A stretch of 50,448 nucleotides of DNA from Candidatus Tayloriibacteriota bacterium (GCA_028286725.1 JAQBQZ010000005.1:1-50448); one strand, 5' to 3'. Positions 9,490 to 40,386 are shown, numbered from the stretch's first letter. Numbers and translations: made by a program. The notes: generated from the letters alone by a model not told the origin.

Positions 9490-11634
9490 ATGAACAGAGA
9501 CTATCCATTAGAAAAGATTCGAAACTTCGGTATCATCGCTCACATCGATGCAGGAAAGACAACAACATCAGAAAGAATTCTGTACTACACAGGTATGTCA
9601 CACAAGATCGGTGAGGTGCACGACGGAGAGGCGACTACTGACTGGATGGAACAGGAAAAAGAGCGAGGTATCACAATTACTGCGGCTGCTATTACTTGTT
9701 TCTGGAATCCTACATATATGGGTGAGGACAAGTCTCTCATGCACCGATTCAACATTATCGATACACCAGGACACGTGGACTTTACAGTGGAGGTAGAGCG
9801 ATCTCTTAAAGTATTGGACGGTGGAGTTGTGGTATTCGACGGAGTGGCTGGAGTAGAGCCACAGTCAGAAACAGTATGGAGACAGGCTGACAAATATAGT
9901 GTTCCTCGAGTTTGTTTCATCAATAAACTTGATAGAATGGGAGCTTCTTTTGAAAGAAGCTTTGCTTCTATCGTTGAGCGACTCAACAAAAATGCTGTAC
10001 GAATGCAGATCCCTATGGGTGTTGAAGAAAATCACAATGGTGTGATCGACCTTTTGAAAATGAAGGCGTACTACTTCGAAGGAGATATGGGTATGACAAT
10101 CAAAGAAGCAGAAATCCCAGCAGAATATCTTGAAGAAGCAAAAAAATTCCGAGCAATGCTTGTAGAAAAAGTTGCTGAATTTGATGAGAAGCTCATGAAT
10201 GATTTTCTTGAGGAAAAAGAACTTTCTATTGAAGATCTTAAAAAAACTATCCGAAAGGCAACTATTGCAAACGCACTTTATCCAGTATTTACAGGATCAG
10301 CTTTGAAGAACAAGGGAGTACAGCTTGTACTTGATGCTGTGGTTGAATACCTCCCATCACCTCTTGATATTCCACCAGTAACAGGACTTGATCCTGAAAC
10401 AGGCGAAGTTATCACACGAAAGGCATCAGATGAAGAACCTTTCGCTGCACTCGCATTCAAACTTCAGACAGATCCATTCGTAGGGCAGCTTACATTCTTC
10501 CGAGTGTATTCTGGAACTATTGAGGCAGGATCATACATCTACAACTCAACAACTGGAAACAAAGAACGACTTGGGCGAATCGTACGACTTCAGGCTAACA
10601 AGCGTGAAGAAGTAAAGAAGGTTTTTGCGGGAGAGATCGCAGCTGCGGTAGGACTCAAGGAAGCAAAAACTTCACATACATTCTGTGATGAAACACATCC
10701 AATAATTCTAGATCCAATTAAATTCGCAGACTCAGTGGTGTCACTTCGAATTGAACCTAAAACAAAAGCAGATCAAGAAAAAATGGGTGTTGCACTCAAG
10801 AAACTCGCTGATGAGGATCCAACATTCCGTATTTCTTCAAACCCAGAAACTGGAGAAACTTTGATCGCTGGTATGGGTGAGCTACATCTTGAAATCATGA
10901 TCGACCGAATGAAGAGAGAATTCGGTGTTGAAGCTAATGTTGGTAAACCACAGGTAGCATACAAAGAAACTATTACGACTGAAGCTGAAGCTGAATACAA
11001 ATATGTTAAGCAGTCTGGAGGTAAAGGACAGTACGGTCACGTTGTGCTCACACTTCGACCACTTAAGCCTCTTGAAGAAGGAGAGAAAGTGTCTAAGAAT
11101 ACTCATCGAGAAGAAGGATTTGAATTCACCAACTCTATTAAGGGAGGTGTTATTCCAAACGAATTTATTCCAGCTGTTGAGAAGGGTGTACACGAAGCGA
11201 TGGATCGAGGTATCGTTGCTGGATTTAAGATGGTGGATGTCTCTTGTGAACTTACATTCGGTTCATCACACGATGTGGACTCATCAGAAATCGCCTTTAA
11301 GATCGCTGGTTCTCAGGCATTTCAGGAAGCTGCACGACGTGCAAAGCCTGTTATCCTTGAACCAGTAATGAAAGTTGAAGTGGTAACTCCTGAGAAATTC
11401 ATGGGAGATGTAACTGGAAACTTGAGTTCAAAGCGAGCTCAGATCCTTTCTATGGGAGACCGAGGGCAGAACAAAGTTGTTGCTGCGATGGTTCCTCTTT
11501 CAGAAATGTTCGGTTACGTTACAGCACTCCGATCACTTACGGAAGGACGAGCTTCATCAACAATGGAATTCGATCATTACGAAATCGTACCACCAAACGT
11601 CGAGAAACAGATTCAAGAGAATAAAACGAAGTAG
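9490..11634 (+). CDS. fusA: Elongation factor G
   Basis: [35 protein letters not shown]. Confidence 0.98.
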
Positions 11635-20856: not shown

Positions 20857-21228
20857 ATGATACAGCCAAGATCAATAGTTCAAATAGCTGACAACTCAGG
20901 TGCCAAGATCGGCCGAATTTTCAAAGTGCTTGGATCTTCAAAGAAGCGATATGCAGAAATTGGAGAGCTCGTTATCCTTTCCGTTCAGAAAGCAGAGCCA
21001 CGAAAGGCGGTAAAGAAGAAGGATGTTCTCCGAGCTATTGTTGTTCGACAGAAGAAACCTCTACGACGAAAGGACGGTTCGTACATTCGATTTGATGAGA
21101 ATGCAGTTGTTATCCTTGAAAAGGAAAAGAATGAGCCTCTCGCAGGTCGTGTATTCGGTCCAATTCCACGAGAGATCGCTGAACTCGGTTTCCAGAAGAT
21201 CGCATCACTCGCGCCAGAAATTGTGTAA
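20857..21228 (+). CDS. rplN: 50S ribosomal protein L14
   Basis: ADNSGAK, DGSYIRFDENA, RVFGP, SLAPE. Confidence 0.97.
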   Translation: MIQPRSIVQIADNSGAKIGRIFKVLGSSKKRYAEIGELVILSVQKAEPRKAVKKKDVLRAIVVRQKKPLRRKDGSYIRFDENAVVILEKEKNEPLAGRVFGPIPREIAELGFQKIASLAPEIV

Positions 21229-21245
21229 AGTTTTAAATAAAATAT

Positions 21246-26625: not shown

Positions 26626-27900
26626 ATGCAATCATTTTTTTCAAAATTAAAGTTAGTTTTTAGCGACGCGGTTTTGCGAAGAAGAATCATTTCAACTATT
26701 GTGCTTCTCGGTCTTTTTCGAGTGCTTGCAGGGATTCCTATTCCTGGTATTGATGCTCAAAAGCTTGCACAATTCTTTGGCAACAACCAATTCTTCGGAC
26801 TTCTCGATGTATTTTCTGGAGGAGGGCTTTCAAATCTCTCTATCGTAATGCTTGGAGTGGGACCATATATTACTGCATCTATCATAATGCAGCTTTGTAC
26901 TATCATGTTCCCAAGACTCAAGGCAATGTATCAGGAAGAAGGTGAGGCTGGGCGAAAGAAATTCAGCCAGATCTCTCGATTGATCTCAATTCCACTCGCG
27001 CTTCTTCAGGCGGTGAGCTTTATTATACTTCTCGAAAAGCAGGGAATTGTAGGTGAGCTCAGTACTTTCCAGCTTATCGTAAACACGCTTGTAGTAACTG
27101 GAGGTTCAGTTCTTCTTATGTGGATCGGTGAACTTATTACTGAGTTTGGAATCGGAAACGGTGTTTCTCTTATCATCTTCGGGGGTATCGTTGCAACACT
27201 TCCTACAAAGCTCAGTCAGATACTTTATGCCTATGACCCATCAAAGCTTCTTTCATATCTTTTCTTTGCTGCTGTGGCGTTTGTTATTGTCTATGCGGTT
27301 GTATTCATTACAGAAGCAGAAAGACCAATTCCAGTCACCTATGCAAAGCGAGTGCGAGGAAACAAGGTGTATGGAGGCATCTCAACTTATATTCCACTTC
27401 GACTTAATCAGGCTGGAGTGATTCCAATTATCTTTGCACTTTCTATTCTTCTTTTTCCACAGCTCATTTTGAATGTGGTCAAAGGTGCAGTAGCAAATCA
27501 GAGTGTCAAAGATGTTGCGGACACGCTTCTCTCATGGGTTGCCAATCAATGGATCTACGGAATCACATACTTCCTCTTTGTCTTTGTCTTTACTTATTTT
27601 TATACTGCGATCACTTTTGATCCACATCAGATGGCTGAGAATCTTCAGAAGAATGGTGCATTCATTCCAGGTGTTCGACCGGGTACATCAACATCAGAAT
27701 ATGTAGGAAAGGTTCTTACTCGCATTACACTCGTTGGAGCGCTCTTCTTAGGCTTTATTGCGGTCTTGCCGCTCATTGTGAAAGGTCTTACAGGTATTAC
27801 ATCTGTAGCGGTTGGAGGTACAGCGCTTTTGATTGCGGTCTCTGTGATCTTGGATCTTGTGAAGAAAGTTGAGGCTCAGATCTCGATGAGAGAGTACTAG
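26626..27900 (+). CDS. secY: Preprotein translocase subunit SecY
   Basis: LGVGPYITASIIMQL, GIGNGVSLIIF, AGVIPIIFA, FIPGVRPG, GGTALLI. Confidence 0.98.
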   Translation: MQSFFSKLKLVFSDAVLRRRIISTIVLLGLFRVLAGIPIPGIDAQKLAQFFGNNQFFGLLDVFSGGGLSNLSIVMLGVGPYITASIIMQLCTIMFPRLKAMYQEEGEAGRKKFSQISRLISIPLALLQAVSFIILLEKQGIVGELSTFQLIVNTLVVTGGSVLLMWIGELITEFGIGNGVSLIIFGGIVATLPTKLSQILYAYDPSKLLSYLFFAAVAFVIVYAVVFITEAERPIPVTYAKRVRGNKVYGGISTYIPLRLNQAGVIPIIFALSILLFPQLILNVVKGAVANQSVKDVADTLLSWVANQWIYGITYFLFVFVFTYFYTAITFDPHQMAENLQKNGAFIPGVRPGTSTSEYVGKVLTRITLVGALFLGFIAVLPLIVKGLTGITSVAVGGTALLIAVSVILDLVKKVEAQISMREY

Positions 27901-28025
27901 AGTTAAATCAAAACTCAAAGCAGTAGCGAATACCCGAGAGGGTAAAAAGTAAAAATCAAAAATAGAATACCGCATCCAAGGATGCGGTATTCTATTTTTG
28001 ATTTAATATCTTTGATTTTTGAGTC
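27901..28025 (+). repeat. Heptamer array (TCAAAAA-like) interrupted by a 27-nt element, then a 25-bp-stem terminator and the reverse-complement array
   Basis: agttaaa|tcaaaac|tca[27 nt]aaaa|gtaaaaa|tcaaaaa; stem AAATCAAAAATAGAATACCGCATCC-aa-GGATGCGGTATTCTATTTTTGATTT. Confidence 0.7.
27918..27944 (+). mobile_element. 27-nt hairpin micro-element, copy 1
   Basis: AAGCAGTAGCGAATACCCGAGAGGGT is identical over 26 nt to 37159-37184. Confidence 0.6.
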
Positions 28026-28062
28026 ATTTTCGGGTATCATGTGGGTATAATCAAATACACAC

Positions 28063-28644
28063 ATGAACAAAAAAGTCTTTATTTTTATAGGTAAAAGTGG
28101 AAGTGGGAAGGGTACTCAGGCGAAACTTCTTATTGAAAAGCTTGGACAAAAAAGTGAGAGTGTTTACTATGTTTCAACAGGGGATGAATTTCGAAGGGTG
28201 TTTAGTATGAATACATACAGTTCGAATTTGGTGAAAGGAATTGTTGATCAAGGGCTCTTTTGCCCTTCGTTTGCAGCGGTTTCAATGTGGACCAACGCGC
28301 TCTTCAGAGATCTTAAAGAGAATGAGCATATCATTATTGATGGAACACCGCGAAGTGTTTCTGAGGCGATGGTTTTGGACACCCTTTTTCCTTTTTATGA
28401 GGCAGAACCGGTTGTGATCTATATTGATGTAACTCGAGAGTGGGCGACAGAAAAGCTTCTGGGGCGAGCACGTCATGATGATACAAATGACGGAATTACT
28501 TCTCGACTGGATCTTTTTGATTCTCAGATTGTTCCAATTGTTGATATGTATAAATCAAGAGAGAGTATTGTTGTTCATCATATAAACGGAGAACAAGCTG
28601 TTGAAGCAGTGCACAAAGATTTGATGACGGCGCTCGAAATTTAA
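28063..28644 (+). CDS. adk: Adenylate kinase (short, nucleoside monophosphate kinase)
   Basis: GKSGSGKGTQ, STGDEFR, IDGTPR, R.RHDD; position after secY. Confidence 0.88.
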   Translation: MNKKVFIFIGKSGSGKGTQAKLLIEKLGQKSESVYYVSTGDEFRRVFSMNTYSSNLVKGIVDQGLFCPSFAAVSMWTNALFRDLKENEHIIIDGTPRSVSEAMVLDTLFPFYEAEPVVIYIDVTREWATEKLLGRARHDDTNDGITSRLDLFDSQIVPIVDMYKSRESIVVHHINGEQAVEAVHKDLMTALEI

Positions 28645-28733
28645 TTTCGAAATTCTTCACCCTCTAAAGTTTTATCTATCGTTATGCAATATGGTCAAGT
28701 TTTGCAAAAGGAATTTAGATAATAATAGGTAAT

Positions 28734-28754
28734 ATGTGTATGATGAGAATATAA
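28734..28754 (+). CDS. Putative leader peptide MCMMRI
   Basis: ATG TGT ATG ATG AGA ATA TAA upstream of homoserine dehydrogenase. Confidence 0.4.
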   Translation: MCMMRI

Positions 28755-28775
28755 TTATTAATATTGCACAACAAG

Positions 28776-28867
28776 AAAAGCTGGTTTTAATAAATTATCA
28801 TGAAGAGCGATCTCCCTTTCATGTGGTTTACTTTCCAGAATATGCTGTCTAATACAACCAGCTTTTT
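28776..28867 (+). promoter_or_regulatory. Structured leader/attenuator-like element
   Basis: AAAAGCTGGTT(28776-28786)/AACCAGCTTTT(28856-28866) enclosing an inner hairpin AAATTATCATGAA..TTCATGTGGTTT. Confidence 0.5.
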
Positions 28868-28892
28868 AATAGATAAAATTTTCTAGGGTAAA

Positions 28893-29738
28893 ATGAAAAA
28901 CGCGATTCTTTTTGGATTTGGAAATATTGGAAAAGTTTTGGCAGAACAAATTCCAAAAGAGAAAATTGATCTTAAATATATTGTAAACTCAAAAGGAGTA
29001 TTTGATTCTAGCCTTTCAAAACAAGGTGATTTGAGTGATTGGAAGATCTTCGCAAATGATATAGGAATTGTATTCATTACAATCCCAACAGTTAGTGACG
29101 GCGCTAAAGCTTTGGAATACGCTTCATTTTTTCTTGAGAAAGATATCCCTGTAGTGACTTGTGAGAAAGCATCGATCGCAAATCACTTTGAATATTTTAA
29201 AAAACATGAAAATATTTTTAAGTTCACAGCATCTGTTGGTGGTGGAACGAAAATGTTAGAACGATTGTCAAAATTTGATGGAGAAGTTTTTGAAATAAAG
29301 GGAATTGTAAATGGAACTCTTAATTTCATAGGAGACAGTTTGAAAAAAGGAATCAATAAAAATGAAATAGTGAAAGAGATCTTAGAAAAAGGTTTTGCAG
29401 AGCCGGGAGCAAATACATTTGAAGAAATTATCGAAGGAGAGTTGAATGACATTCGGCTCAAAACAGTGATCCTTGCGAATAGTTCGGGAATGTTTGAAAA
29501 AATAATTGGACCTCAAGACATAAAGATCGCTCGAAAAGATCTCGCTAAAAGATGTATCGTGAAAATTTCAAAAGAAAAAATCGAAGCCGGGTTCTTGGAA
29601 GATAACGATGCTGAGTGGCTTCCGGATGGGGTGAATAATGTGTTGTATATAAACACTAAAAAAGTATGTTTTGGTCCTGGGGCAGGGGCTGTGGCAACAG
29701 TTGAATCAATGCTTGGAGATCTAAAAAGTTTGATATAA
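28893..29738 (+). CDS. hom: Homoserine dehydrogenase (short, no ACT domain)
   Basis: GFGNIG, PVVTCEK, ASVGGG, GIVNGTLNFI, GFAEP, GPGAG. Confidence 0.85.
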   Translation: MKNAILFGFGNIGKVLAEQIPKEKIDLKYIVNSKGVFDSSLSKQGDLSDWKIFANDIGIVFITIPTVSDGAKALEYASFFLEKDIPVVTCEKASIANHFEYFKKHENIFKFTASVGGGTKMLERLSKFDGEVFEIKGIVNGTLNFIGDSLKKGINKNEIVKEILEKGFAEPGANTFEEIIEGELNDIRLKTVILANSSGMFEKIIGPQDIKIARKDLAKRCIVKISKEKIEAGFLEDNDAEWLPDGVNNVLYINTKKVCFGPGAGAVATVESMLGDLKSLI

Positions 29739-29754
29739 TAACAGAAATAAAAAA

Positions 29755-30522
29755 ATGGTAACAATCAAGACAAAAGAAGAAATAGCAAAGCTTAAAAAAG
29801 GGGGAAAAATCCTTCATGATCTTTTACATTTCCTTGCGGCAGAAGTAAGGGAGGGTGTTTCGACTAAATATTTGGAGACCTTGGCTCGAAAAAAGATTGA
29901 GGAAGTGGGGGCGACGCCCGCATTTCTCAATTACACTCCTCATGGCGCTGCGAGACCTTTTCCTGCGGCACTGTGCGTTTCCGTTAATGATGTGGTTGTT
30001 CACGGTATTCCAAATGAAAACCCAATAATACTTAAAAATGGAGATATTGTAACGATCGACACGGGAATCTGTTTCGAGGGACTCTACACTGATTCAGCAA
30101 TCACGGTCCCGGTAGGCGAGGTGAGTAAAACTTCGGAGCTACTTCTTAAGGCGACAAAAGAGGCTCTAAATATGGCTATAAAAGTGGTCAGGGACGGTGC
30201 GACAACAGGAGATATTGGGATTGCTATTGAACGCGTAGCGAAAAAATATGGATTTTCTCCTGCAGAAGATTTGGGTGGTCATGGAGTCGGATATTCTCAA
30301 CATGAAGATCCATTCATTCCGAATTTCAAAATGCGGGGCAAAGGTGTAGTGCTCAAAGAGGGGATGGTTTTGGCAGTTGAACCAATGCTAAACGAGGGAA
30401 CATCGAGAGTGGAATTTCTCTCTGATGGATACACTGTGGTGACTGCAGATGGAAAACGAAGTGCGCATTTCGAACATACGATCGTGGTAACAAAAAATGG
30501 AGCAGAAATTCTAACTCTTTAA
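29755..30522 (+). CDS. map: Type I methionine aminopeptidase
   Basis: SVNDVVVHGIP, DSAIT, GHGVG..HEDP, AVEPM, SAHFEHT. Confidence 0.97.
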   Translation: MVTIKTKEEIAKLKKGGKILHDLLHFLAAEVREGVSTKYLETLARKKIEEVGATPAFLNYTPHGAARPFPAALCVSVNDVVVHGIPNENPIILKNGDIVTIDTGICFEGLYTDSAITVPVGEVSKTSELLLKATKEALNMAIKVVRDGATTGDIGIAIERVAKKYGFSPAEDLGGHGVGYSQHEDPFIPNFKMRGKGVVLKEGMVLAVEPMLNEGTSRVEFLSDGYTVVTADGKRSAHFEHTIVVTKNGAEILTL

Positions 30523-30645
30523 GAAATTTTTCATTAAAAATGCATCGAATGTTTCTGGCTTTTGATGCATTTTTTCTTTTTACAAAAAAAGTCAGTTTTT
30601 ATCCAAAATTGATTCGATTTTAGAAAAATTTCATCCCATTTTTTG

Positions 30646-30694
30646 TTATATTTTATATTTTATATTTTTGATTCCATATTTTCGATTTTAACTT
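30646..30694. repeat. Heptamer tandem array
   Basis: ttatatt|ttatatt|ttatatt|tttgatt|ccatatt|ttcgatt|ttaactt. Confidence 0.65.
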
Positions 30695-30810
30695 TACTTA
30701 TCACGACGAGCGAGAAGCGCGTGTACGAGTATTTTTTCTCTCGTCCACAGCGTTCGAGTCGATGTCGGGACAAATAACATCATTCCGAATTCAAGGTTAT
30801 TTATCCCCAT
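30694..30810 (-). CDS. Possible 38-aa small ORF (or structured RNA)
   Basis: Manual translation MGINNLEFGMMLFVPTSTRTLWTREKILVHALLARRDK; its stop is followed directly by the heptamer array. Confidence 0.3.
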   Translation of the reverse strand: MGINNLEFGMMLFVPTSTRTLWTREKILVHALLARRDK

Positions 30811-30856
30811 TTTTTAATAAAAATAATAGTGATTTTCGTGCTAAAATAAGAGTTAA

Positions 30857-33800
30857 ATGCGACTTGTATTCCGCACAATTTTCTTTGTTGTTTTCTCACT
30901 GATTTTTATATCAAAGCCTCTTGTTGCCGACGCCTCTATTGCGACAGAAACTGCCAAAAATATTGGAATATTTTATGCAAACTCGACTATCTCTCTTGCC
31001 GACAAGACAGGTGAGAAAATTTCTGGAGTAAAAGATTTTTATACTCCACTTTTTGTACATACCAGAGAGGATCTTAAAGGGATCTTCGATGGGGCATTTA
31101 TGGTTTCTAATACTGCGCTCAATTCTGTGATCGGTTTGGGAAGGGGAGTTCTCGATACGAGTGCATACCAGATTCAACATACTGGAGAAAATGTTGGAAG
31201 TGTTGTCGCATCTGCAGGTTCTGTACTCGATGATGTGAATAATGTTCTTTTTACAAAAACACCGGAGGTTATTTCAAAGGCAGATATTGCTAAAGTGGAA
31301 GTTACAATACAGGCTGAAGCTACTCCTGACACAAGCGTGTCGACCAAAAAAACAATTTCAGTTGAGAATTTTGCAAGTGCACAAAATGCGATTCACTTTG
31401 CTCTCCCGAGTGCGGAGGATCTTGGAAGTAAAGTTTTGAATGTATATCAAAATATTGGTAATGCGTTTTTGGATTCTGTCGCACACAATACGAATGAAAC
31501 AGTTTCTTCTTGGAAAGGTATGATCGACAAAACGAGAAATGTGGTCGCTGTAGTGAACAGCAACATCAACGAGGCGACAAACGCTCTCGGCAATGTGGGA
31601 TATATCGGAACTAAAAATGTTTTAGATGGTGGAATAGTCATTGGAAATGGAGTATTGAAAACAAGTGAAAAAGTTATTACAAAAACAGGAGATGTGGTTG
31701 CGAGTGCATTTGTTGGCACCAACAATCTTTTACACAACTCAAAGAATGTTTTGTTGGGTTCTGTGACATCTCTAACAGGGTCTTTGACACAGAGTAAAAA
31801 TAATTCCGTTGCGGGAGTTGGTGCGATCTGGGATTTTATAATTGACAAGATCTCAGCGCCTCTTGTGCCTCTCTTTTTCAATTCTTCAAACTCAGATGAG
31901 ACTTCGATAAATGTCATCGACTCAAAAAGTGGTACTGTTCAAAACGGTGTGGCAAATAACCAAAATTCAATAGCTGTAATAAAAAATAGTACAGGAAATA
32001 ATTCTGTCATTGAAAGGCTTGTTAGTAAAAACTCTTATTTCACTATTGATAATTCCGCAGAAATAAACAAATTGCGAGCTGAGATGATCACGCTCAATAC
32101 AAATACGATAAATTATCTCACTGATCGAATTGCGCTTCAGGGATACCACAGTGTGGGTGGTATATCAAATACGATCAATAATATTATCCAAAATGGAACT
32201 GGTACAAGTAACGCGATAAGTATCGATGCTTCAGGAGGGACAACAGGATTTTCATTTTCAGGGGGACCGATCACTTCATCTGGAACATTCACACTAGGGG
32301 GCATACTTAATATTGCAAATGGTGGCACCGGAACTTCGACGCTGCCTATCTATGGAAAGGTTTTGATCGGCAATGCGAATGGATCTTATGATCTTGTCGC
32401 AACATCAACGCTTGGTCTTGGAGGAAGTGGCGGGACAGTAACAAGTGTCGATCTTTCTGTGCCAACAGGGCTCACTGTTTCAGGTGGTCCTGTTACAACT
32501 TCGGGAACATTCGCACTCGGTCTTCAAAGTGGATACACGATCCCGCTTCTCGCATCAACGACAGAGTGGAATTCTGCATATTCAAATCGAATCACATCAG
32601 CATCAAGTCCACTTTCAATTGCGAACAATGTTATCTCACTTTCAACAGGCGGAGATTGGGCAGGAACTTTGGATGGGCAAAGCGGAAGCTATTACACGAA
32701 TGCCAATAATCTCACAAATTTTGGCACACCTTTTTATTCGTACTTCCACGCAACAACAACTGATGCACTTGCGCAAGGTTCTACAAACAAATATTATTCT
32801 TCGGCTCTTTTTGCAAACGATCTTACTGCAACAACATCACTCTCACATATTCAAACACTTGGGGGACTTAGTTCTTTTGGAATATCGGGGGCGACAACAA
32901 CTTCAACAGGAAATTTAAATGTTGCAGGAAACATTAATTTCAACGGTTCATTCCTCCAAAACGGCTCTCCATTTGTCGGAAGTCAGTGGAATACAAATGG
33001 ATCTGATATTTCATATTCTGCGGGGAATGTAGGAATTGGGACATCTACCCCTTCGGCAAAATTAGCAATTACTGGTAGTAGTTCAGGAGATGTGTTTACT
33101 GCCGCCTCTTCTTTTAATGCCCCTTTGTTTACAATTGGAAATACAGGGGTTGTCAAAGTTGCTGCTGTCAATTCAGCAGCAGGATCAATACAAGGACTTG
33201 ATAATTCAAGTTCTGGAATTGGCATATCGAGCGGAAATTTTAATTTTGGAAATTATGCCTACATAGTAGGAACACAAAACACTTTCAGAGTAAATTCGAA
33301 TCTTGCTTTCGGCTTTAGTACTGATATATTTAATAATACAAACGATGTCGCTGTATCTAGAATCTCATCTGGTGTTCTTGGTATTGGCACTGGTTTGGCG
33401 GGGAATAGTTCTGGCACATTGCTTGCAGGCAACATTGGAATCGGTACAACAACTCCGTGGAAGAATCTTTCAGTCGTAGGTGACATGGTTCTCACTGGAG
33501 GATTCTATGATTCACTTTCATCATCTGGTACAAACGGCATGGTACTTCAATCTACTGGATCAGCCACAAAATGGGTGGCAACAAGTACGCTTGGTCTTTC
33601 GTCAACACTTACTGGAACTACCGGTCAATTTGCATATTTTAGTGGGACTAATAATGCGGTGGGCACTTCGTCAATCTTTATTTCAACAGTAGGGAATGTA
33701 GGGATTGGCACAACGAATCCTAGTGGAAAGCTCGATGTTCAAGGAGGTTATACATACTTGAATGGTCTAAGAATTTCAGGATCTGACAACACAAACACCA

Positions 33801-36800
33801 TCTACCAACCTTCAGGAGCAATTGGAATCACTGCAGGAGGCGGAGGTCAAGGATTATTCGTAACAGCTAGTGGTGCAAGTTATGCGAACGGTGCTTTTGG
33901 TGCTGGAACAGCTTCGCCTGGGTATGCCTTACATGTAAGACCACTTGCAACTGATAAATATGGATTATATATCGATGGACTGTCAGCTCAAACTGCAAAT
34001 CTTGCGCAATTTAATGTCTCTGGCGTTCAAAAAGCTTACATCGATAAAGATGGAGGGGCATATTTTGGTGGCAATGTAAGTGTAGGTACAACAACTCCTT
34101 GGGGCCAGCTCTCAGTAAACCCCAACGGCATCACAGGACCATCATTCGTTGTTGGATCTTCAACTGCAACGAACTTTATTGTGACAAATGGAGGGAATGT
34201 GGGGGTAGGAACAGCAAATCCGACTCAAATGTTTGATGTCTTGGTGCCAACAAATGCCGATAAAGGATTTACATTCAGGTCAGGATCAGGGACTATTTTG
34301 ACTGGTACTAATGGATCATCTGGAAATTATGGCTTAACTTTAGCAAATGGCTTGGTGGCGATTGATAATTTTTATGGTCTCAGAATGACGAGTGGAAGTC
34401 TTCCAATTCAAGGTTTGGATAGCTCAGCAACTATTGCTCGCGATCTTTCAATTAGAGGAAAAACTCTGGAATTTAAAACTGGTAATAGTGGTTCTGCGTT
34501 TCCAAATACAGCTATGACAATAGATGTTAATGGTAATGTTGGTGTAGGTTCTACAACTCCTTGGGGTCAATTCTCTGTAAATCCAAACGGTATCACCGGC
34601 CCTTCATTTGTCGTCGGTTCTTCGACAGCGACGCAGTTTGTTGTATCAAATGGGGGAAATGTGGGAATTAACACTGCAGCCCCATCTTCAACATACAAGC
34701 TTGATATAAATGGTGGAGCGCGAATAACAACTGGAAATAGTCTTATTGTTGATACAGTATCTCCAAATGCGGGTGCGAATCTTACTCTTATTGCAGGGTC
34801 TTCTAACCGCGCTTACTTTGGAGGTAGTGGTGTGTTTGGTGGACAGCTCACAGCTGCTACCGGAGAACTTGGGATATCTGGTACGACTGTGCTTCGGTGG
34901 ACCAATGATGCAACATCATACGGTACGGCTGATATTGGATTTTCTCGAGGAGCTTCAGGAAAATTATATTTAGGTAACGGTACAGCAAGTGATTACACAG
35001 GAACGCTTATTGCGGGAAATATTGGTATCGGCACAACAACTCCTTGGGCTCAGCTCTCAGTAAATTCAAATGGAATTACAGGTCCTTCATTTGCTATCGG
35101 CTCTTCAACTGCAACAAGCTTTATTGTGACAAATGGAGGATATGTGGGAATTGGAACTTCTGCTCCAACTCGAAACTTTGTTGTTACCAATAATATTGCT
35201 GGCGCAGGTACGATATCCATTAGTCCAGGTGATCCAACATTAAGTACGGCAATTGGGGCTACTGTAATGCGAACAAATTCTACTGGTAATTTCGATTTTG
35301 ATAACCCAAAGACTATTAATTTTAACTTCAATACTGGAGATAATACTGGCGCAACCAGAAAATTCACCATAAATTATGGATCGGCCCAAACTAATGCATT
35401 AACGGTAGTTGGTGGCGTCGACCAAGCGAATGCAGGGTTTGTTGGTGTAGGTTCTACAACTCCTTGGGGTCAGTTCTCAATAAACCCAAATGGAATAACA
35501 GGGCCATCATTTGCAATCGGTTCATCAACGGCAACACAATTCATTGTGACAAATGGGGGATATGTTGGAATCGGAACCTCAACGCCAAACAACACACTTT
35601 CTGTAGTAGGTGCGGGGTATTTTACAACGGGGCTTTCAGTTGGAGGATCAAATGCGACGACTACTGGCACGCGAGTGTCCATGACACCTGGAACTTTCTC
35701 TTTATACAACAGTAGTGATACAAGCGCGAGATTAAGCCTCTCGCCTGGTGGAAGCGGTAGTTTGCCTAATGGTGTTCCTGGGATTGTTGTAAATTCGCAA
35801 AGTGGCGCTGGCAGTGCAAACTTGTATGGGGCAGCCATTGCTCAAAATGGTACACAAAATACTCTCTCTTTCTATGTCTCCAATGGCACGACGCTCATGA
35901 CCGAGCGTGCGAGGTTTGATAGTAATGGAAACTTTGGTATCGGAACAACTTCACCTCTTGCGCGCCTTGATGTTGTTGGTATTAACAACGGCACGTCACC
36001 GCTCTTTCAAGTTTCAAGTCTCGCTTCTTTTGCAACAACAACGAGATTTCTTATAGACTCAAGTGGAAATATAGGAATCGGAACTTCAACTCCAGCATTT
36101 CCACTTGATGTATATAGTACTGTGAACTCAACTCAAACATACGGATTTTTGAATGCGAGTGGAGTGGTTGGTACTGCAGGTCCAGGATCAAATGGTTATT
36201 CTATTCGTGCGCAAGGAAGAATTATGGCGCCAGAATTTAATGCAGTGTCGGACGCTCGTTTGAAGAATGTGAATTTTGAGCTTACTTCAGATGTGGCATT
36301 GGGAGCTCTTTTGAAACTTCAGCCTGTATCATTTAATTGGAAAAATGAACCAAATGGTCAACCTATTTTAGGTTTCCTTGCTCAAGATGTTGAAACTGTT
36401 ATTCCAAATGCAGTATCGAAAATAGCAACAGAAAATTTTGCAGATCAAAGAATGCTTGATTACAACCAGATTACGGCTGTGATGGTAGGAGCGGTTAAGG
36501 AGATCAAGATCGAGCTTGATGCTTTGAGTCAAAAGATCTCAAGTATGATGCCATGGTTTGTTGACGGTAAGTTCAAGGTCCAAAGTGACGTTTGTGTTGA
36601 TGACGTTTGTGTGACAAAGCAGCAATTCAAGCAAATGCTTTTGAACAGCGGTGCATCACATACGACAGTAAGTGTTCCAAATCCAAATAATACTTCAACC
36701 ACCACAGAATCCACATCAACAACAACTGAGTCAACTTCTACAACTACTCCGCCAAATGAAGATGTAAATACTCCTGTAGAAACTCCATCAGAACCAATAC

Positions 36801-36853
36801 CTGAACCTGCTTCAGCAGATGCGGCTCCGGCACCAGAGACTATAACCCCTTAA
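30857..36853 (+). CDS. Giant secreted fibre/adhesin-like protein with GNVGIGT repeats and a C-terminal peptidase S74 intramolecular chaperone domain
   Basis: Signal peptide; many G(N/Y)(V/I)GIGT(T/S)xP units; SDARLK..LQPVSFNWK..GFLAQDV..LDYNQI; Thr/Pro/Glu-rich tail. Confidence 0.85.
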   Translation: MRLVFRTIFFVVFSLIFISKPLVADASIATETAKNIGIFYANSTISLADKTGEKISGVKDFYTPLFVHTREDLKGIFDGAFMVSNTALNSVIGLGRGVLDTSAYQIQHTGENVGSVVASAGSVLDDVNNVLFTKTPEVISKADIAKVEVTIQAEATPDTSVSTKKTISVENFASAQNAIHFALPSAEDLGSKVLNVYQNIGNAFLDSVAHNTNETVSSWKGMIDKTRNVVAVVNSNINEATNALGNVGYIGTKNVLDGGIVIGNGVLKTSEKVITKTGDVVASAFVGTNNLLHNSKNVLLGSVTSLTGSLTQSKNNSVAGVGAIWDFIIDKISAPLVPLFFNSSNSDETSINVIDSKSGTVQNGVANNQNSIAVIKNSTGNNSVIERLVSKNSYFTIDNSAEINKLRAEMITLNTNTINYLTDRIALQGYHSVGGISNTINNIIQNGTGTSNAISIDASGGTTGFSFSGGPITSSGTFTLGGILNIANGGTGTSTLPIYGKVLIGNANGSYDLVATSTLGLGGSGGTVTSVDLSVPTGLTVSGGPVTTSGTFALGLQSGYTIPLLASTTEWNSAYSNRITSASSPLSIANNVISLSTGGDWAGTLDGQSGSYYTNANNLTNFGTPFYSYFHATTTDALAQGSTNKYYSSALFANDLTATTSLSHIQTLGGLSSFGISGATTTSTGNLNVAGNINFNGSFLQNGSPFVGSQWNTNGSDISYSAGNVGIGTSTPSAKLAITGSSSGDVFTAASSFNAPLFTIGNTGVVKVAAVNSAAGSIQGLDNSSSGIGISSGNFNFGNYAYIVGTQNTFRVNSNLAFGFSTDIFNNTNDVAVSRISSGVLGIGTGLAGNSSGTLLAGNIGIGTTTPWKNLSVVGDMVLTGGFYDSLSSSGTNGMVLQSTGSATKWVATSTLGLSSTLTGTTGQFAYFSGTNNAVGTSSIFISTVGNVGIGTTNPSGKLDVQGGYTYLNGLRISGSDNTNTIYQPSGAIGITAGGGGQGLFVTASGASYANGAFGAGTASPGYALHVRPLATDKYGLYIDGLSAQTANLAQFNVSGVQKAYIDKDGGAYFGGNVSVGTTTPWGQLSVNPNGITGPSFVVGSSTATNFIVTNGGNVGVGTANPTQMFDVLVPTNADKGFTFRSGSGTILTGTNGSSGNYGLTLANGLVAIDNFYGLRMTSGSLPIQGLDSSATIARDLSIRGKTLEFKTGNSGSAFPNTAMTIDVNGNVGVGSTTPWGQFSVNPNGITGPSFVVGSSTATQFVVSNGGNVGINTAAPSSTYKLDINGGARITTGNSLIVDTVSPNAGANLTLIAGSSNRAYFGGSGVFGGQLTAATGELGISGTTVLRWTNDATSYGTADIGFSRGASGKLYLGNGTASDYTGTLIAGNIGIGTTTPWAQLSVNSNGITGPSFAIGSSTATSFIVTNGGYVGIGTSAPTRNFVVTNNIAGAGTISISPGDPTLSTAIGATVMRTNSTGNFDFDNPKTINFNFNTGDNTGATRKFTINYGSAQTNALTVVGGVDQANAGFVGVGSTTPWGQFSINPNGITGPSFAIGSSTATQFIVTNGGYVGIGTSTPNNTLSVVGAGYFTTGLSVGGSNATTTGTRVSMTPGTFSLYNSSDTSARLSLSPGGSGSLPNGVPGIVVNSQSGAGSANLYGAAIAQNGTQNTLSFYVSNGTTLMTERARFDSNGNFGIGTTSPLARLDVVGINNGTSPLFQVSSLASFATTTRFLIDSSGNIGIGTSTPAFPLDVYSTVNSTQTYGFLNASGVVGTAGPGSNGYSIRAQGRIMAPEFNAVSDARLKNVNFELTSDVALGALLKLQPVSFNWKNEPNGQPILGFLAQDVETVIPNAVSKIATENFADQRMLDYNQITAVMVGAVKEIKIELDALSQKISSMMPWFVDGKFKVQSDVCVDDVCVTKQQFKQMLLNSGASHTTVSVPNPNNTSTTTESTSTTTESTSTTTPPNEDVNTPVETPSEPIPEPASADAAPAPETITP
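34070..35585 (+). repeat. Four copies of a conserved ~45-aa module separated by unrelated inserts
   Basis: TTPWGQ(L/F)SVNPNGITGPSF(V/A)(V/I)GSSTAT.F.V.NGG at about 34070, 34532, 35015 and 35440. Confidence 0.85.
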
Positions 36854-36877
36854 ATTTTATTTAAGAATTTAATTAAT

Positions 36878-37387
36878 ATGGCAACAGTTAATCGTTTTGA
36901 AGATTTGGTTGCGTTTCAAAAATCTCGAGAGTTAGTTAGGGAAATATACAAATCTCTTCGTGATTGTCGAGATGGAGGATTTAAAGATCAGATACAAAGA
37001 GCTTCTGTCTCGATACTTTCAAATATTGCAGAAGGTTTTGAGAGTGGGACCAAAGAGGGATTTTTGAACTATCTTTATATTGCCAAAGCTTCTGCAGGAG
37101 AGGTGAGGGCGCAATTGTATGTGGCACTGGATGTAGGATATTTAAATCCAGAAACATTAAGCAGTAGCGAATACCCGAGAGGGTGCAAATATTTACATGA
37201 GTTGGTTTTATCTTGCTCGAAGCTTGTGGCTAGTTTTATCGAAAAACTCAAACAAAACGGCATGGGTGGACTTCAAAGAAAAACGGTAGATAAGAAAGAC
37301 GTGCTCGCGGATTTGATGAAAGAAAAAGGATTTGAATACAAAGATGGGAAAGTGGTGAAGATTGATAACGGGAAATTTCAGCATTAA
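36878..37387 (+). CDS. Four-helix-bundle protein (23S rRNA IVP/Avd-like family) with a 9-codon internal insertion
   Basis: FEDLVAFQKS, DQIQRASVSILSNIAEG, FLNYLYIAKASAGEVRAQLYVALDVGYL. Confidence 0.9.
   Translation: MATVNRFEDLVAFQKSRELVREIYKSLRDCRDGGFKDQIQRASVSILSNIAEGFESGTKEGFLNYLYIAKASAGEVRAQLYVALDVGYLNPETLSSSEYPRGCKYLHELVLSCSKLVASFIEKLKQNGMGGLQRKTVDKKDVLADLMKEKGFEYKDGKVVKIDNGKFQH
37159..37185 (+). mobile_element. 27-nt hairpin micro-element, copy 2, in frame inside the four-helix-bundle gene
   Basis: Removing 37159-37185 joins GAA ACA TT|C AAA TAT = ETFKY. Confidence 0.65.
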
Positions 37388-37456
37388 GCTGATACCCGAG
37401 AGGGTGAAATATATAAAGATTTAAGAATTCAAGATTTAAATATTTAACATTTCAGA
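37386..37456 (+). repeat. Shortened micro-element (copy 3) at the stop codon, followed by a 7-8-nt ATTTAA-type array
   Basis: cattAAGC-TG-ATACCCGAGAGGGTG-aaat, then atataaag atttaaga attcaag atttaaat atttaac atttcaga. Confidence 0.6.
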
Positions 37457-37470
37457 GTATAATTAAACCT

Positions 37471-40386
37471 ATGGCGGAAAATCTACAACAAAACGAAATA
37501 AATAAATTCTCTTCACCTCTTGAAGAGATAGAATATCTTCGTGCCAAAGTTGTCACTGCAGAAAAAAACTATCTTGAAAAATTCGGCGCTGCAGATCGTG
37601 AGAGTATTGTGCGTGAAGAGATTCGTAGATACGCACAGGCGAATCCTGATGAAGTGCTCGCCAAGGGACACAAGATGCTTGAGGTGCATCAAAGAGAGAT
37701 CGTGCTTGAGCTTGCGCCAGAAAACCATGACACCAAAATGGAGGAACTTTTGGCGATTCTTGCAGAACGAGGTCTCCGAAATACCCTTGATATCATTACA
37801 CTTTTGAACAATCCGCACCTCGAAGATGATTTTCATCGATTCCTTGTTCAATACATCAAATCAGGCCTTCCTATAAATGACATAAAAGGGGTTGAAAAAT
37901 ATACCAAAGCTCTCAAGCACACTCTCTTTGAGATTTCTTTACCGACAGCTGAGGGTGAAGAAGAAAAACAAAAAGCACTCAAAGAACTGGTCTCATCAAT
38001 GGAGCAATTTTATGCAGGTATGGTATCTGTTGCTCATCAAAACGATGAATCATTCACAATCGAGCTTGCCAATCCTGAAGGATCGCTCGAGTCTGTTTTT
38101 TATGTTTCGGTTCCCGGTGATATGTCACATCTTTTCGAAAAACAAATTCTCTCTATATTTCCCAAAGCAAAACTCCTTGAGAAAAAAGATGATTACAATA
38201 TTTTCAACTATGATGGAGCAACTGTTGCGATGGAAGGGAAGATCCAGGGCAATCCCATCTTTCCAATCAAGTGCTATGACAAATTCGACTTCGATCCTTT
38301 GAATATTCTTCTCAATACTTATTCAAAGATTGATGAAGATGGTGAGGGTGCGTGTGTACAGATCATTCTTCGGCCTGACCATGAGAAATATCTTGAACAT
38401 TATCAAGAGGCGCTTCGAGATCTTGAAAAAGGAGGAGTGGCAAAAAAAGCGTTAGATGTTAGGCACACCCTTCTTGGACAGTTTTCAAAAACATTCAAAG
38501 AGTTTGCGTTTGAAGGTGTGAAGGAAATTTTCGGACCTGCACCAGGCAAGAATCCACAGATGACTTCTCCTACAAATCGGGCTACAGAAAACCAGACGAT
38601 CATCGAGCAGATAAGAGAGAAGATCTCAACTCCAATCCTTCAGTCCAACATTCGAATCATCGCTTCTGCAAAAAATAGCCAGCGAGCATACAAGATCGCA
38701 TTCGACCTTGCTTCGTCATTCAATCAATTTGAAAATACTCGAGGAGCAAAGATTGTATTTGAAGAAATTGTTCAAAAAATGCAGGCAGAATTTCTAAAGA
38801 AATTTATCTATCGTGTCTTTGATGATACGAAAAACCTTCCGCTTTCAATCAAAGAGGTGACGAGTATTATGCACTTTCCACAGCACAATATTTCATCTCC
38901 TCAACTCAAAGTCTCAAAAGCGGCAACAGCTCCTGCACCGCTTGGACTTGCGTCAAAAGGAACATTGCTCGGTATCAACAGTGATAGAAATCAAAATACT
39001 AATATATTCACCACAGATGAGGATCGTCTGCGACATTTCTATGTTATCGGACAGACTGGTACTGGTAAGACGACACTTCTAAAAAACATGATCACTCAAG
39101 ATATTCTTGCGGGCAATGGTGTCTGTATGATCGATCCACACGGATCAGATATTCAAGACATCCTCGCCATCATTCCAAAAGAACGATATGAGGATGTGAT
39201 CTATTTTGATCCTGGATATGCGCCGCGACCGATGGCTTTGAACATGCTCGAATACGATGTGAACTACCCAGAACAAAAGACATTCGTCGTAAACGAACTT
39301 CTCTCAATCTTCAACAAACTCTTTGATATGAAAGTGGCAGGAGGTCCGATGTTCGAACAATATTTCCGAAATGCTGTGTTGCTTGTAATGGATGATCCTG
39401 CGAGTGGTAATACACTACTCGATGTTTCTCGAGTGCTGTCGTCAAAACCATTTCGTGAACTGAAACTCTCGAAATGTAAAAATCCAACGGTGACACAATT
39501 CTGGAGAGAGATTGCAGACAAAGCGGGAGGGGAGGCATCGCTTCAAAACGTTGTGCCGTATATTACTTCAAAGTTCGATGTGTTTCTCTCAAACGAAATC
39601 ATGCGGCCGATCATTGCTCAAGAGCATTCAACATTCAACTTCCGTGAAGTAATGGATACAAAGAAAATTCTTCTCGTGAATCTCTCGAAGGGAAGACTCG
39701 GAGATATTAATGCCAACCTTATTGGACTTATTCTTGTAGGAAAGATCCTCATGGCGGCGCTTTCACGTGCAGACTCTTTTGGGACATCTCTTCCATCGTT
39801 TTATCTTTATATTGATGAATTCCAGAACATTACGACAGATTCGATTTCACAGATTCTTTCTGAAGCGCGAAAGTATAAACTGTCTCTCACGATCGCACAC
39901 CAATTTATCGCTCAGCTTGAGGAGAAGATCAAAGATTCTGTATTTGGAAACGTCGGATCCATAGCAGCATTCCGAGTTGGTGCTGATGATGCAGAATATC
40001 TCGAAAAACAATTCTCTCCAGTCTTTAATGCAAAGGATCTTTTGAATCTAGACAACAGAAATGCATACATGAAGATGCTTTCAGATGGGAGACCTGTGCG
40101 ACCATTTAGTATAGCGACGATGCCGCCTTTGAAAGGGGATGAGGGAATTGTGGCAAAGCTCAAAGAACTCTCATATCTCACCTATGGGCGAGAGAGAGGT
40201 TTGATCGAAGCAGAGATCGCAAACAAATTCAAAAAAGAACCACCAAAGGAAATTCCACCAAGTTCTCCGTTCGGCACGCCGGTTCCTGTGACACCAATTG
40301 TAGCTCCAGTTGTTCCTGTTACACCAACTCCCGCTGTCACACCTGCACCTGCGCCCGCGACGAAGAATAATCCATTTGCGGTATAA
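37471..40386 (+). CDS. VirD4/TraG/HerA-like P-loop ATPase (type IV coupling-protein-like)
   Basis: DRLRHFYVIGQTGTGKT, IDPHG, LYIDEFQN, SEARKY, AHQFIAQL, FRVGADDAEYL; Pro-rich tail. Confidence 0.85.
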   Translation: MAENLQQNEINKFSSPLEEIEYLRAKVVTAEKNYLEKFGAADRESIVREEIRRYAQANPDEVLAKGHKMLEVHQREIVLELAPENHDTKMEELLAILAERGLRNTLDIITLLNNPHLEDDFHRFLVQYIKSGLPINDIKGVEKYTKALKHTLFEISLPTAEGEEEKQKALKELVSSMEQFYAGMVSVAHQNDESFTIELANPEGSLESVFYVSVPGDMSHLFEKQILSIFPKAKLLEKKDDYNIFNYDGATVAMEGKIQGNPIFPIKCYDKFDFDPLNILLNTYSKIDEDGEGACVQIILRPDHEKYLEHYQEALRDLEKGGVAKKALDVRHTLLGQFSKTFKEFAFEGVKEIFGPAPGKNPQMTSPTNRATENQTIIEQIREKISTPILQSNIRIIASAKNSQRAYKIAFDLASSFNQFENTRGAKIVFEEIVQKMQAEFLKKFIYRVFDDTKNLPLSIKEVTSIMHFPQHNISSPQLKVSKAATAPAPLGLASKGTLLGINSDRNQNTNIFTTDEDRLRHFYVIGQTGTGKTTLLKNMITQDILAGNGVCMIDPHGSDIQDILAIIPKERYEDVIYFDPGYAPRPMALNMLEYDVNYPEQKTFVVNELLSIFNKLFDMKVAGGPMFEQYFRNAVLLVMDDPASGNTLLDVSRVLSSKPFRELKLSKCKNPTVTQFWREIADKAGGEASLQNVVPYITSKFDVFLSNEIMRPIIAQEHSTFNFREVMDTKKILLVNLSKGRLGDINANLIGLILVGKILMAALSRADSFGTSLPSFYLYIDEFQNITTDSISQILSEARKYKLSLTIAHQFIAQLEEKIKDSVFGNVGSIAAFRVGADDAEYLEKQFSPVFNAKDLLNLDNRNAYMKMLSDGRPVRPFSIATMPPLKGDEGIVAKLKELSYLTYGRERGLIEAEIANKFKKEPPKEIPPSSPFGTPVPVTPIVAPVVPVTPTPAVTPAPAPATKNNPFAV

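Follow-up and report, generated by a model that had tools for sequence, protein, structure and literature searches.

Rickettsia palindromic elements (RPEs) are repeats of 100-150 bp. MITEs (miniature inverted-repeat transposable elements), such as the Correia elements, carry terminal inverted repeats and a target-site duplication, and the hairpin elements derived from IS200/IS605 insertion sequences (palindrome-associated transposable elements, PATEs), which are linked to a Y1 transposase, insert without target duplication and with strand bias. Genomes of the candidate phyla radiation (CPR, Patescibacteria) are below 1 Mb and are usually called streamlined and repeat-poor. The subject of this report is a 27-nt double-hairpin unit that occurs three times in a 50,448-nt stretch of DNA from a Candidatus Tayloriibacteriota bacterium (GCA_028286725.1, JAQBQZ010000005.1:1-50448; the window). 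The window is contig C7 of a genome labelled G000; related genomes carry labels of the same kind. Judged by its sequence features, the element is a lineage-specific family of miniature interspersed repeats, REP-like and RPE-like, in one Patescibacteria clade. Comparison of sister species shows apparently precise, strand-biased and in-frame-tolerated insertions into A-rich tracts, fast turnover and conserved predicted hairpins.

Repetitive extragenic palindromes (REPs), in the part of Di Nocera et al. 2013 (PMC3733652) drawn on here, are stem-loops of 20-40 bp that bear a GTAG or CGTC tag. They are found for the most part downstream of open reading frames (ORFs), between co-directional or convergent genes, and are plausibly transcribed. 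Their ends can give the upstream ORF its stop codon, and some copies lie inside genes, including replication and repair genes. Their abundance varies among related genomes, and some families have no dedicated transposase. The same part of that source places RPE-1 inside a R. conorii gene. Measured against these statements the present unit is REP-like in being a stem-loop-forming sequence of 27-28 nt, mostly downstream of ORFs and probably transcribed, sometimes supplying the stop codon, in some copies inside genes and variable in abundance between relatives. A preliminary description of the window, made from its sequence, had called the unit much shorter than REPs, which the 20-40-bp range corrects.

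The unit differs from REPs in consisting of two tandem short hairpins and not one palindrome, in having G(T/C)AG in the loop of the first hairpin and not at the unit end, and in its 7-14 copies per genome against hundreds. It also forms neither inverted dimers (REPINs) nor clustered arrays of the kind known as bacterial interspersed mosaic elements, and its host is a 0.9-Mb CPR genome; REP-associated tyrosine transposase (RAYT) is lacking in three of the four host genomes. With RPEs it appears to share the presence of a palindromic repeat in frame in protein-coding genes, housekeeping genes included, where it is apparently translated at tolerated positions; its length is about a fifth of theirs, neither its sequence family nor its phylum is related to theirs, and the majority of its copies are intergenic. 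Like MITEs it is short, non-coding, interspersed and present or absent between relatives, but it is far smaller, has no terminal inverted repeats, has no parent insertion sequence that was found, and shows no duplication beyond A-run ambiguity at three exact filled/empty pairs. The hairpin-defined unit, the lack of target duplication and the strand bias recall PATEs, whereas G000, G005 and G007 have no Y1 transposase and no conserved tetranucleotide target was identified. On these features the element is not a member of the REP-RAYT system and would be closest in kind to REPs, its in-gene behaviour being closest to that of Rickettsia RPEs. A search of the literature on CPR or Parcubacteria with REP or palindromic elements returned nothing relevant.

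Filled and empty sites

The 13-mer TACCCGAGAGGGT occurs in the window at 27931, 37172 and 37393, always on the + strand, and none of 100 dinucleotide-preserving shuffles gave a match. Copies 1 and 2 share the 26-nt sequence AAGCAGTAGCGAATACCCGAGAGGGT (27918-27943 and 37159-37184) without a mismatch, exactly as first described; they differ at the 27th base, where one has A and the other has G. The third copy had been taken for a shortened one. It is a full-length unit of another subtype, CAGC-AUUAA-GCUG followed by A and UACCC-GAGA-GGGUG, with a predicted RNA fold of -12.4 kcal/mol (z -4.58). The stop codon TAA (37385-37387) of the upstream gene falls in its first-hairpin loop.

Copy 1 lies 18 nt past the secY stop codon and 13 nt ahead of an intrinsic terminator. 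The G000 spacer between secY and adk reads ...AAAACTCA[AAGCAGTAGCGAATACCCGAGAGGGTA]AAAAGTAAAAATC... and that of G005 ...AAAACTCAAAAAATAGAAATC...; the unit is absent from the orthologous spacer of G005, G007, G002, G006 and G001, and the spacer is exactly 27 nt shorter in two sister species. Removal of 27 nt had been predicted to restore a clean heptamer register, and a natural empty site now bears this out: G000 minus the 27 nt reads AGTTAAA/TCAAAAC/TCAAAAA/GTAAAAA/TCAAAAA/TAG and G005 reads AGTCAAA/TTAAAAC/TCAAAAA/ATAGAAA/TCAAAAA/TAG, equal in length and register.

Copy 2 lies in frame within the gene of a four-helix-bundle (4HB) protein whose Pfam match ends at the insert (residue 95, profile position 91 of 106). 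This protein has 7953 homologues at E<=0.001, the closest non-self one at 80% identity. The alignment of homologues that had been called for was made with 14 of them and contains both forms. Thirteen lack the nine residues and read ETF or ETY, one residue, then YL or TL; nine of these read exactly ETFKYL, the empty allele that had been predicted. The single filled homologue (P0003, 79% identical) has SSSAYPRGC at the insert position. In the AlphaFold (AF2) model, of mean predicted local distance difference test score 76, residues 94-100 form a low-confidence loop between helix 59-86 and helix 103-129, and the insert is thus modelled in a loop between helices. The tree of the four closest 4HB proteins, calculated with the insert removed, is (P0001,(P0002,(P0003,P0004))) with an inner clade support of 85/87; at the insert position P0002 reads ETF-T-YL and P0004 ETY-E-TL. 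The two filled genes are therefore not sisters, and two gains, two precise losses or allelic recombination are needed. A metagenome scan for close 4HB DNA returned a single gene, 62% identical and empty.

The 4HB gene was also considered as a partner of the element and rejected, as 4HB genes occur in 8/8 genomes, element-bearing or not. Two observations concern the gene itself. At G007:C28 ~11400-11620 (L036) an element copy begins 6 nt past the stop codon of the giant upstream protein, and the VirD4-like gene comes next, with no 4HB gene between; in G000 (36854-37470) the 510-nt 4HB gene stands between that stop codon and the element, and the 4HB gene is therefore itself a presence/absence polymorphism beside the element. 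At the start of a G006 contig (G006:C6:17-322 and 550-1179; L060, L077) a weak 4HB (Avd-like) match lies beside a reverse-transcriptase gene, the layout of a diversity-generating retroelement.

In-frame copies inside genes

Four of the 14 copies in G005 stand inside genes, in frame and in the sense direction, and the G000 orthologues of these genes are without the segment. An LCAT-like lipase (identified by Pfam) is filled in G005 and shorter by exactly 9 aa in G000, while TopA, an RseP-like protease and IleRS are longer in G005 by 11, 16 and 18 aa; the last three names come from conserved motifs read by the author and not from Pfam. All the in-gene size differences are multiples of three, and the unit is used in all three frames. 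Where the frame would give a TAG stop (CAG TAG), it reads CAG GAG in TopA and CAG CAG in IleRS, which argues that the in-gene copies are translated rather than removed. Across these genes, copies are shown to persist, as far as the reading frames indicate, only where in-frame read-through holds. The tolerance of the unit in coding sequence as sense codons, first suggested for the 4HB gene, thus extends to five genes (4HB, lipase, TopA, RseP-like and IleRS). Two further copies possibly lie in N-terminal extensions with uncertain start codons, one ahead of a prepilin-like gene (shared by G000 and G005) and one ahead of a HIT-like gene (G005).

With filled and empty pairs at secY-adk, 4HB and the lipase, the repeated hairpin-forming micro-element of the preliminary description does appear as a precise insertion of about 27 nt. 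As to its being a mobile element, what the comparison shows is this insertion pattern, which either actual mobility or recombinational copying may have produced.

Structure and covariation

The unit comprises a 4-bp hairpin with the loop AGYAG, one A, and a 5-bp hairpin UACCC-GNRA-GGGUG, and its ends coincide with the helix ends (27-28 nt across copies). Copies fold as RNA into two abutting hairpins at -7.3 to -12.5 kcal/mol (z -2.0 to -4.6). Among 48 aligned matches, standard pairs fill 89.3% of cells and both sides change in six of the nine pairs (39 cells), in an alignment that was fitted to the model and so leans towards structure. None of 500 shuffles reached the observed values, and sliding the partners lowered pairing to 23-52% and the covariation score to at most 0.083, against 0.312 observed. 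A hand alignment of 18 sequences gives AU 7, GC 7 and GU 3 at pair 8-16. The compensated stems include ACCU/AGGU, ACUC/GAGU, CAAC/GUUG, CAUC/GAUG and CAAU/AUUG. The second loop is G-N-R-A with its second base free. A-G-Y-A-G is also conserved; it occupies unit positions 5-9, the loop of hairpin 1, and lies inside the unit rather than at its terminus. Of 36 copies, 17 have T at the Y position, 12 have C and the other 7 have G or A.

No Rfam family match overlapped a copy (E<=1 at 6 loci and E<=0.1 at 12 further loci), and no copy overlapped a tRNA. A hammerhead core, K-turn, sarcin-ricin loop, bulge-helix-bulge intron, integron attC site and oriT nick site were compared by eye and set aside, since they did not match the conserved positions.

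A related "long form" was also seen: here hairpin 2 of the two-hairpin module has a bulged C (ACCCGAGAGCGGU), and an outer stem with compensated changes between genomes surrounds the module. It has 1-3 copies per genome in several genera and varied gene contexts, again without an Rfam match (Table 1). This long form may be a structured RNA of a kind not yet known and the ancestor of the 27-nt unit.

Distribution and turnover

A covariance model (CM), R1, was built from 18 aligned copies of G000 and three congeners. At E<=0.01 it finds 12 copies in G000, 14 in G005, 8 in G002 and 7 in G007, that is 41 in four of the 21 genomes of the family scanned. Three genomes of other genera gave weak matches (3, 1 and 1), and the other 14 family genomes, among them the congeners G001, G003, G004 and G006, gave none. 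This search of the genome and its relatives had been proposed at the outset. A sample of 150 other genomes across the order gave matches in G005 and otherwise in only two genomes (2 of 148), one match in each. A strict 24-nt IUPAC pattern run over 185,579 species (one genome each) hit 12 stretches in 5 assemblies, all titled Patescibacteria, Paceibacterota or "Saccharibacteria" metagenome-assembled genomes.

SecY identity to G000 is 95% in G007, 91.5% in G005, 84% in G002 and 80-75% in the remaining genomes, and PriA gives the same order of relatedness. The element-bearing G000, G005, G002 and G007 are therefore G000's nearest clade. A patchy occurrence within the genus, which Adk suggested (G006, 91%), was dropped, as SecY and PriA put G007, G005 and G002 nearest and G006 far.

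Of the 29 copies in G002, G005 and G007, 17 are collinear in G000 by both flanks; the place is filled there in 2 and not in 15. Mapping by one flank adds one more filled place (after gdh), and protein alignment shows the lipase site to be empty. Of the 37 copies with an upstream ORF, 27 have the same orientation as the nearest one, and 5 copies are antisense to both neighbours. At least 6 copies begin 0-2 nt past a stop codon. Inverted partners were absent within 2 kb of all 41 copies; the two closest copies stand 220 nt apart in direct orientation.

Some arrangements deserve mention by themselves. After a gdh-like gene a GUGA-loop copy is found in three genomes (G002:C1:71311, L092; G000:C4:29405; G005:C6:18413), the G002 copy being inverted relative to the gene and of the bulged-C type. 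Three copies lie within 3 kb at G005:C10:11068-13995 (L037, L049), and the A-rich heptamer arrays around two of these run on into their reverse complements (TTTTGACTT-type), an arrangement that would form long AT-rich hairpins about the unit.

Targets and flanks

The unit had been placed in AT-rich 7-8-nt repeat units, and the flank profile of 36 copies agrees with A-rich heptamer tracts: A-rich signals recur about every 7 nt on both sides, and positions -18 to +12 about the second loop have a high information content. The host tracts are shown by their sequence and predicted coding to be arrays of heptamers close to stop codons and terminators, and stretches that are Lys-rich or code for loops.

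Two unrelated genes in two species, 4HB and the lipase, were hit at the same target of about 30 nt, ACATT^TAAATATTTA. The lipase site in G000, TTTAAATATTCAGACATT^TAAATATTTAAAT, nearly equals the reconstructed 4HB site, TTTAAATCCAGAAACATT^.AAATATTTAC; the two have TTTAAAT..A.ACATT^(T)AAATATTTA in common, and the 62%-identical empty 4HB gene reads GAAACATTTAAAAAT at the site. Three non-orthologous loci, spread over two genomes, have the junction AAATCAAAACTCA^AAGCAG, and G005, whose secY site is empty, already has AAAACTCA^AAAA there. The extra length per event is 27, 27, 27, 33, 48 and 54 nt, followed by interval differences of at least 78 nt, and the longer events carry heptamers along with the unit. 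Such variation in length is unlike a fixed-length transposon and is expected of copying from a donor with variable tract length.

A perfect AT-only palindrome, ATTTAAATATTTAAAT, was seen with near copies at G000:C2:29368, C14:65820, C9:124672 and C14:79589-79620. One palindrome of this type lies inside the LCAT-like gene at the element's target, and by a rough estimate its recurrence is far above the expectation from base composition.

Mobilising enzymes

No mobilising enzyme had been noticed in the window, and the whole of G000 likewise gave no match to Y1_Tnp (PF01797), RVT_1 (PF00078), IS110, Relaxase or TrwC in a search of chosen Pfam families. PF01797 has no match in G000, G005 or G007 and is present in G001, G002, G003, G004 and G006; Y1_Tnp thus fails to track the element. 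No copy shares a contig with any of the four PF01797 matches in G002 at a distance of 50 kb or less. RAYT was rejected as a candidate on this distribution, the family being missing from three of four host genomes and present in non-hosts. Reverse transcriptase was rejected likewise, RVT_1 being absent from the element-rich G000 and G002 and present in the element-free G003, G004 and G006. A "Cas12f1-like TNB" or "TnpB" match proved to be PriA with its zinc ribbon, present in 8/8 genomes. The one tyrosine and three serine recombinase genes of G000 have no element nearby, the best match with filters off being at E 0.097.

The congeners G001, G002, G004 and G006 each have 3-4 Y1 (IS200/IS605-type) transposase genes coding for 222-281 aa. 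From their sequences these are a presumably active IS family with a distribution opposite to that of the element, except in G002.

Mode of spread

Taken as a whole, the data are probably best explained by a clade-specific REP-like repeat that inserts precisely and is spread by flank-homology copying without a dedicated transposase. Flank-homology-assisted copying into A-rich tracts is the most likely route suggested by the sequences, because of the shared flanks, the same target in two genes, the variable co-transferred length and the absence of a candidate enzyme. A new copy would be made from an existing one into a site sharing short A-rich flank homology, by short-patch gene conversion or by template switching on single-stranded DNA, to which DNA uptake may contribute; a dedicated transposase would not be involved. 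The hairpins would be kept either for promoting the copying or for a role in RNA, such as that of a 3'-end or processing structure.

Several points weigh against copying of this kind. No donor-to-recipient event was observed, and the shared flanks equally fit a site-specific enzyme with an A-rich target; an unrecognised transposase has to be allowed for, since only chosen Pfam families were searched. The strong conservation, the helix covariation and the sense-strand bias (27/37) also fit a selected RNA function. The 7-14 copies per genome are far under the numbers of typical REP families, the key fork of the 4HB tree has support of only 85/87, and some of the places scored as lacking the element are diverged spacers where gain and loss are indistinguishable, as between rplJ and rplL (unit in G000 only).

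The unit might instead be a functional RNA module kept by selection, such as a 3'-untranslated-region stabiliser, an RNase processing signal or a protein-binding site, with the in-gene copies as accidents of its spread. This is a possible explanation, if a doubtful one. The GNRA loop with its free second base and the covariation of both helices would suit it, as would the co-oriented upstream ORFs (27/37), the in-frame copies all in sense, and the many copies 0-2 nt past a stop codon or just ahead of a terminator. Copies keep their place in two species after gdh and before a pilin-like gene, but most copies are not conserved between sister species, and the neighbouring genes (secY, 4HB, rplL, gdh, cca and others) have no common function. 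The related long form, with its covarying outer stem and 1-3 copies in other genera, is consistent with an RNA role; the lack of an Rfam family match and the five copies inside coding sequence are not what a module of this kind would lead one to expect.

A non-autonomous transposon, moved in trans by an unrecognised enzyme that binds hairpins in single-stranded DNA and places a fixed 27-nt unit into A-rich targets, would be comparable to the REP/RAYT and IS200/IS605-derived proposals and is unlikely. Three events of exactly 27 nt with ends at the helix feet are what it would produce, but many events carry variable heptamer flanks. Insertion without target duplication is a property of IS200/IS605-type elements, and the strand-biased copies, the conserved and covarying hairpin and the expansion and turnover in the clade would all agree with such an origin. 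Against it, Y1_Tnp is absent in G000, G005 and G007 and present in four element-free genomes, G000 has no relaxase, TrwC or IS110 match, no copy adjoins a recombinase gene and 0/41 copies have an inverted partner within 2 kb.

That the 27-nt double hairpin is itself a minimal mobile unit, sequence-directed and moving without recourse to RAYT, reverse transcriptase or any known transposase, is distinctly improbable. The double hit on the target of about 30 nt and the 4HB filled and empty alleles that depart from its tree are the points behind it, and the route could be a homology- or RNA-guided copy-and-paste in naturally DNA-importing CPR bacteria.

The earlier suggestion of a retro-derived element, a small RNA reverse-transcribed and then integrated, finds no support and is very improbable. 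The sense-strand bias would fit, and small RNA genes could be represented by two copies that have a possible outer stem and a terminator context of their own. However, RVT_1 is absent from the element-bearing G000 and G002 and present in the element-free G004, G006 and G003, and neither poly-A nor a priming signature is seen in the copies. A chance repeat or an assembly artefact, for which only the low copy number in the window speaks, can be dismissed as next to impossible: 0/100 shuffles reach three matches, 41 copies occur across four genomes, a second protein from another data set also carries the nine-residue insert at the 4HB position, contigs of the possible source run X1 match the window with zero indels, and a 151-nt contig of the independent run X2 (a separate study) covers 37029-37179 with one difference, including 21 nt of the in-gene insert. 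No 27-nt deletion (empty) allele occurs in the contigs of X1 or X2, an absence that is uninformative as contigs drop rare variants; two metatranscriptome runs gave no contig on the window, which is equally uninformative.

Other features of the window and host genome

Table 1. Features of the window (positions from its first base) and long-form sites in this and other genomes.
Feature	Position	Strand	Evidence and remarks
secY, upstream neighbour of copy 1	26626..27900	+	ORF; 95% to G007, 91.5% to G005; name from the preliminary description and conservation, not Pfam
A-rich heptamer tract AGTTAAA TCAAAAC TCAA...AAAGTAAAAATCAAAAA, hosts copy 1	27901..27956	+	Sequence, G005 comparison
Element copy 1, subtype AAGC...GCGA, 27 nt	27918..27944	+	CM match 27913-27950, 52.8 bits
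20-bp intrinsic-terminator hairpin after secY	27957..28000	.	Conserved in G005, G007
1998-aa protein, C-terminal Peptidase_S74 (endosialidase chaperone) domain, upstream neighbour of 4HB gene	30857..36853	+	Domain match
4HB protein gene, PF05635, 23S_rRNA_IVP family, 169 aa	36878..37387	+	Pfam E 2.6e-26
Element copy 2, 27 nt, in frame within 4HB gene, codes SSSEYPRGC (residues 94-102)	37159..37185	+	CM 54.1 bits
Element copy 3, subtype CAGC...GCUG, 28 nt	37379..37406	+	CM match 37374-37412, 50.7 bits
VirD4/TraG-like coupling ATPase gene, downstream neighbour of copy 3	37471..40386	+	Pfam T4SS-DNA_transf, TraG-D_C, DUF87
Empty site, spacer between L14-like and L24-like genes, 11 nt	21228..21239	+	G005 has 89 nt: element copy and heptamers; gene names from reading translations, not Pfam
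Long-form sites	G000:C5:31395-31433 (L093); G005:C1:4785 (L085); L027, L034, L039 (G014); L028 (G009); L029 (G008)
Further long-form sites	L046 (G002); L097 (G078); L098 (G058)

The G000 assembly has 905,920 bases in 14 contigs and a completeness of 100% by marker genes. Adk stands apart from its neighbours. The G006 protein is 91% identical to that of G000 (window 28063-28641 against G006:C6:33138-33713), with the adjacent SecY at 79% and PriA at 46%, and Adk of G002 is 35% identical to that of G000, yet SecY of G002 is 84%. The history of adk seems from these identities to differ from that of the neighbouring genes, by recombination or transfer. Upstream of an L10-like gene in G000:C14 (L007 2029-2171) an L10 leader (RF00557) is matched at 56.1 bits, the gathering score being 44; G000, a CPR genome, thus has an ordinary ribosomal leader.

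Significance

A structured 27-nt repeat turns over between sister species and has added 9-18 residues to proteins, including the essential TopA, IleRS and RseP-like proteins, without a recognisable transposase. It offers a record from nature of peptides inserted by selfish or recombining DNA, in a second lineage besides Rickettsia and unrelated to it. The filled and empty sites are presence/absence markers for strain tracking in metagenomes and, with exact pairs and a defined target, make a tractable case for the spread of REP-like repeats without RAYT. If the hairpins act in RNA, they would be among the few cis-elements defined for CPR bacteria, and if the double hairpin should prove to be a sequence-directed mobile unit, it would represent a new route by which selfish DNA persists in streamlined genomes.

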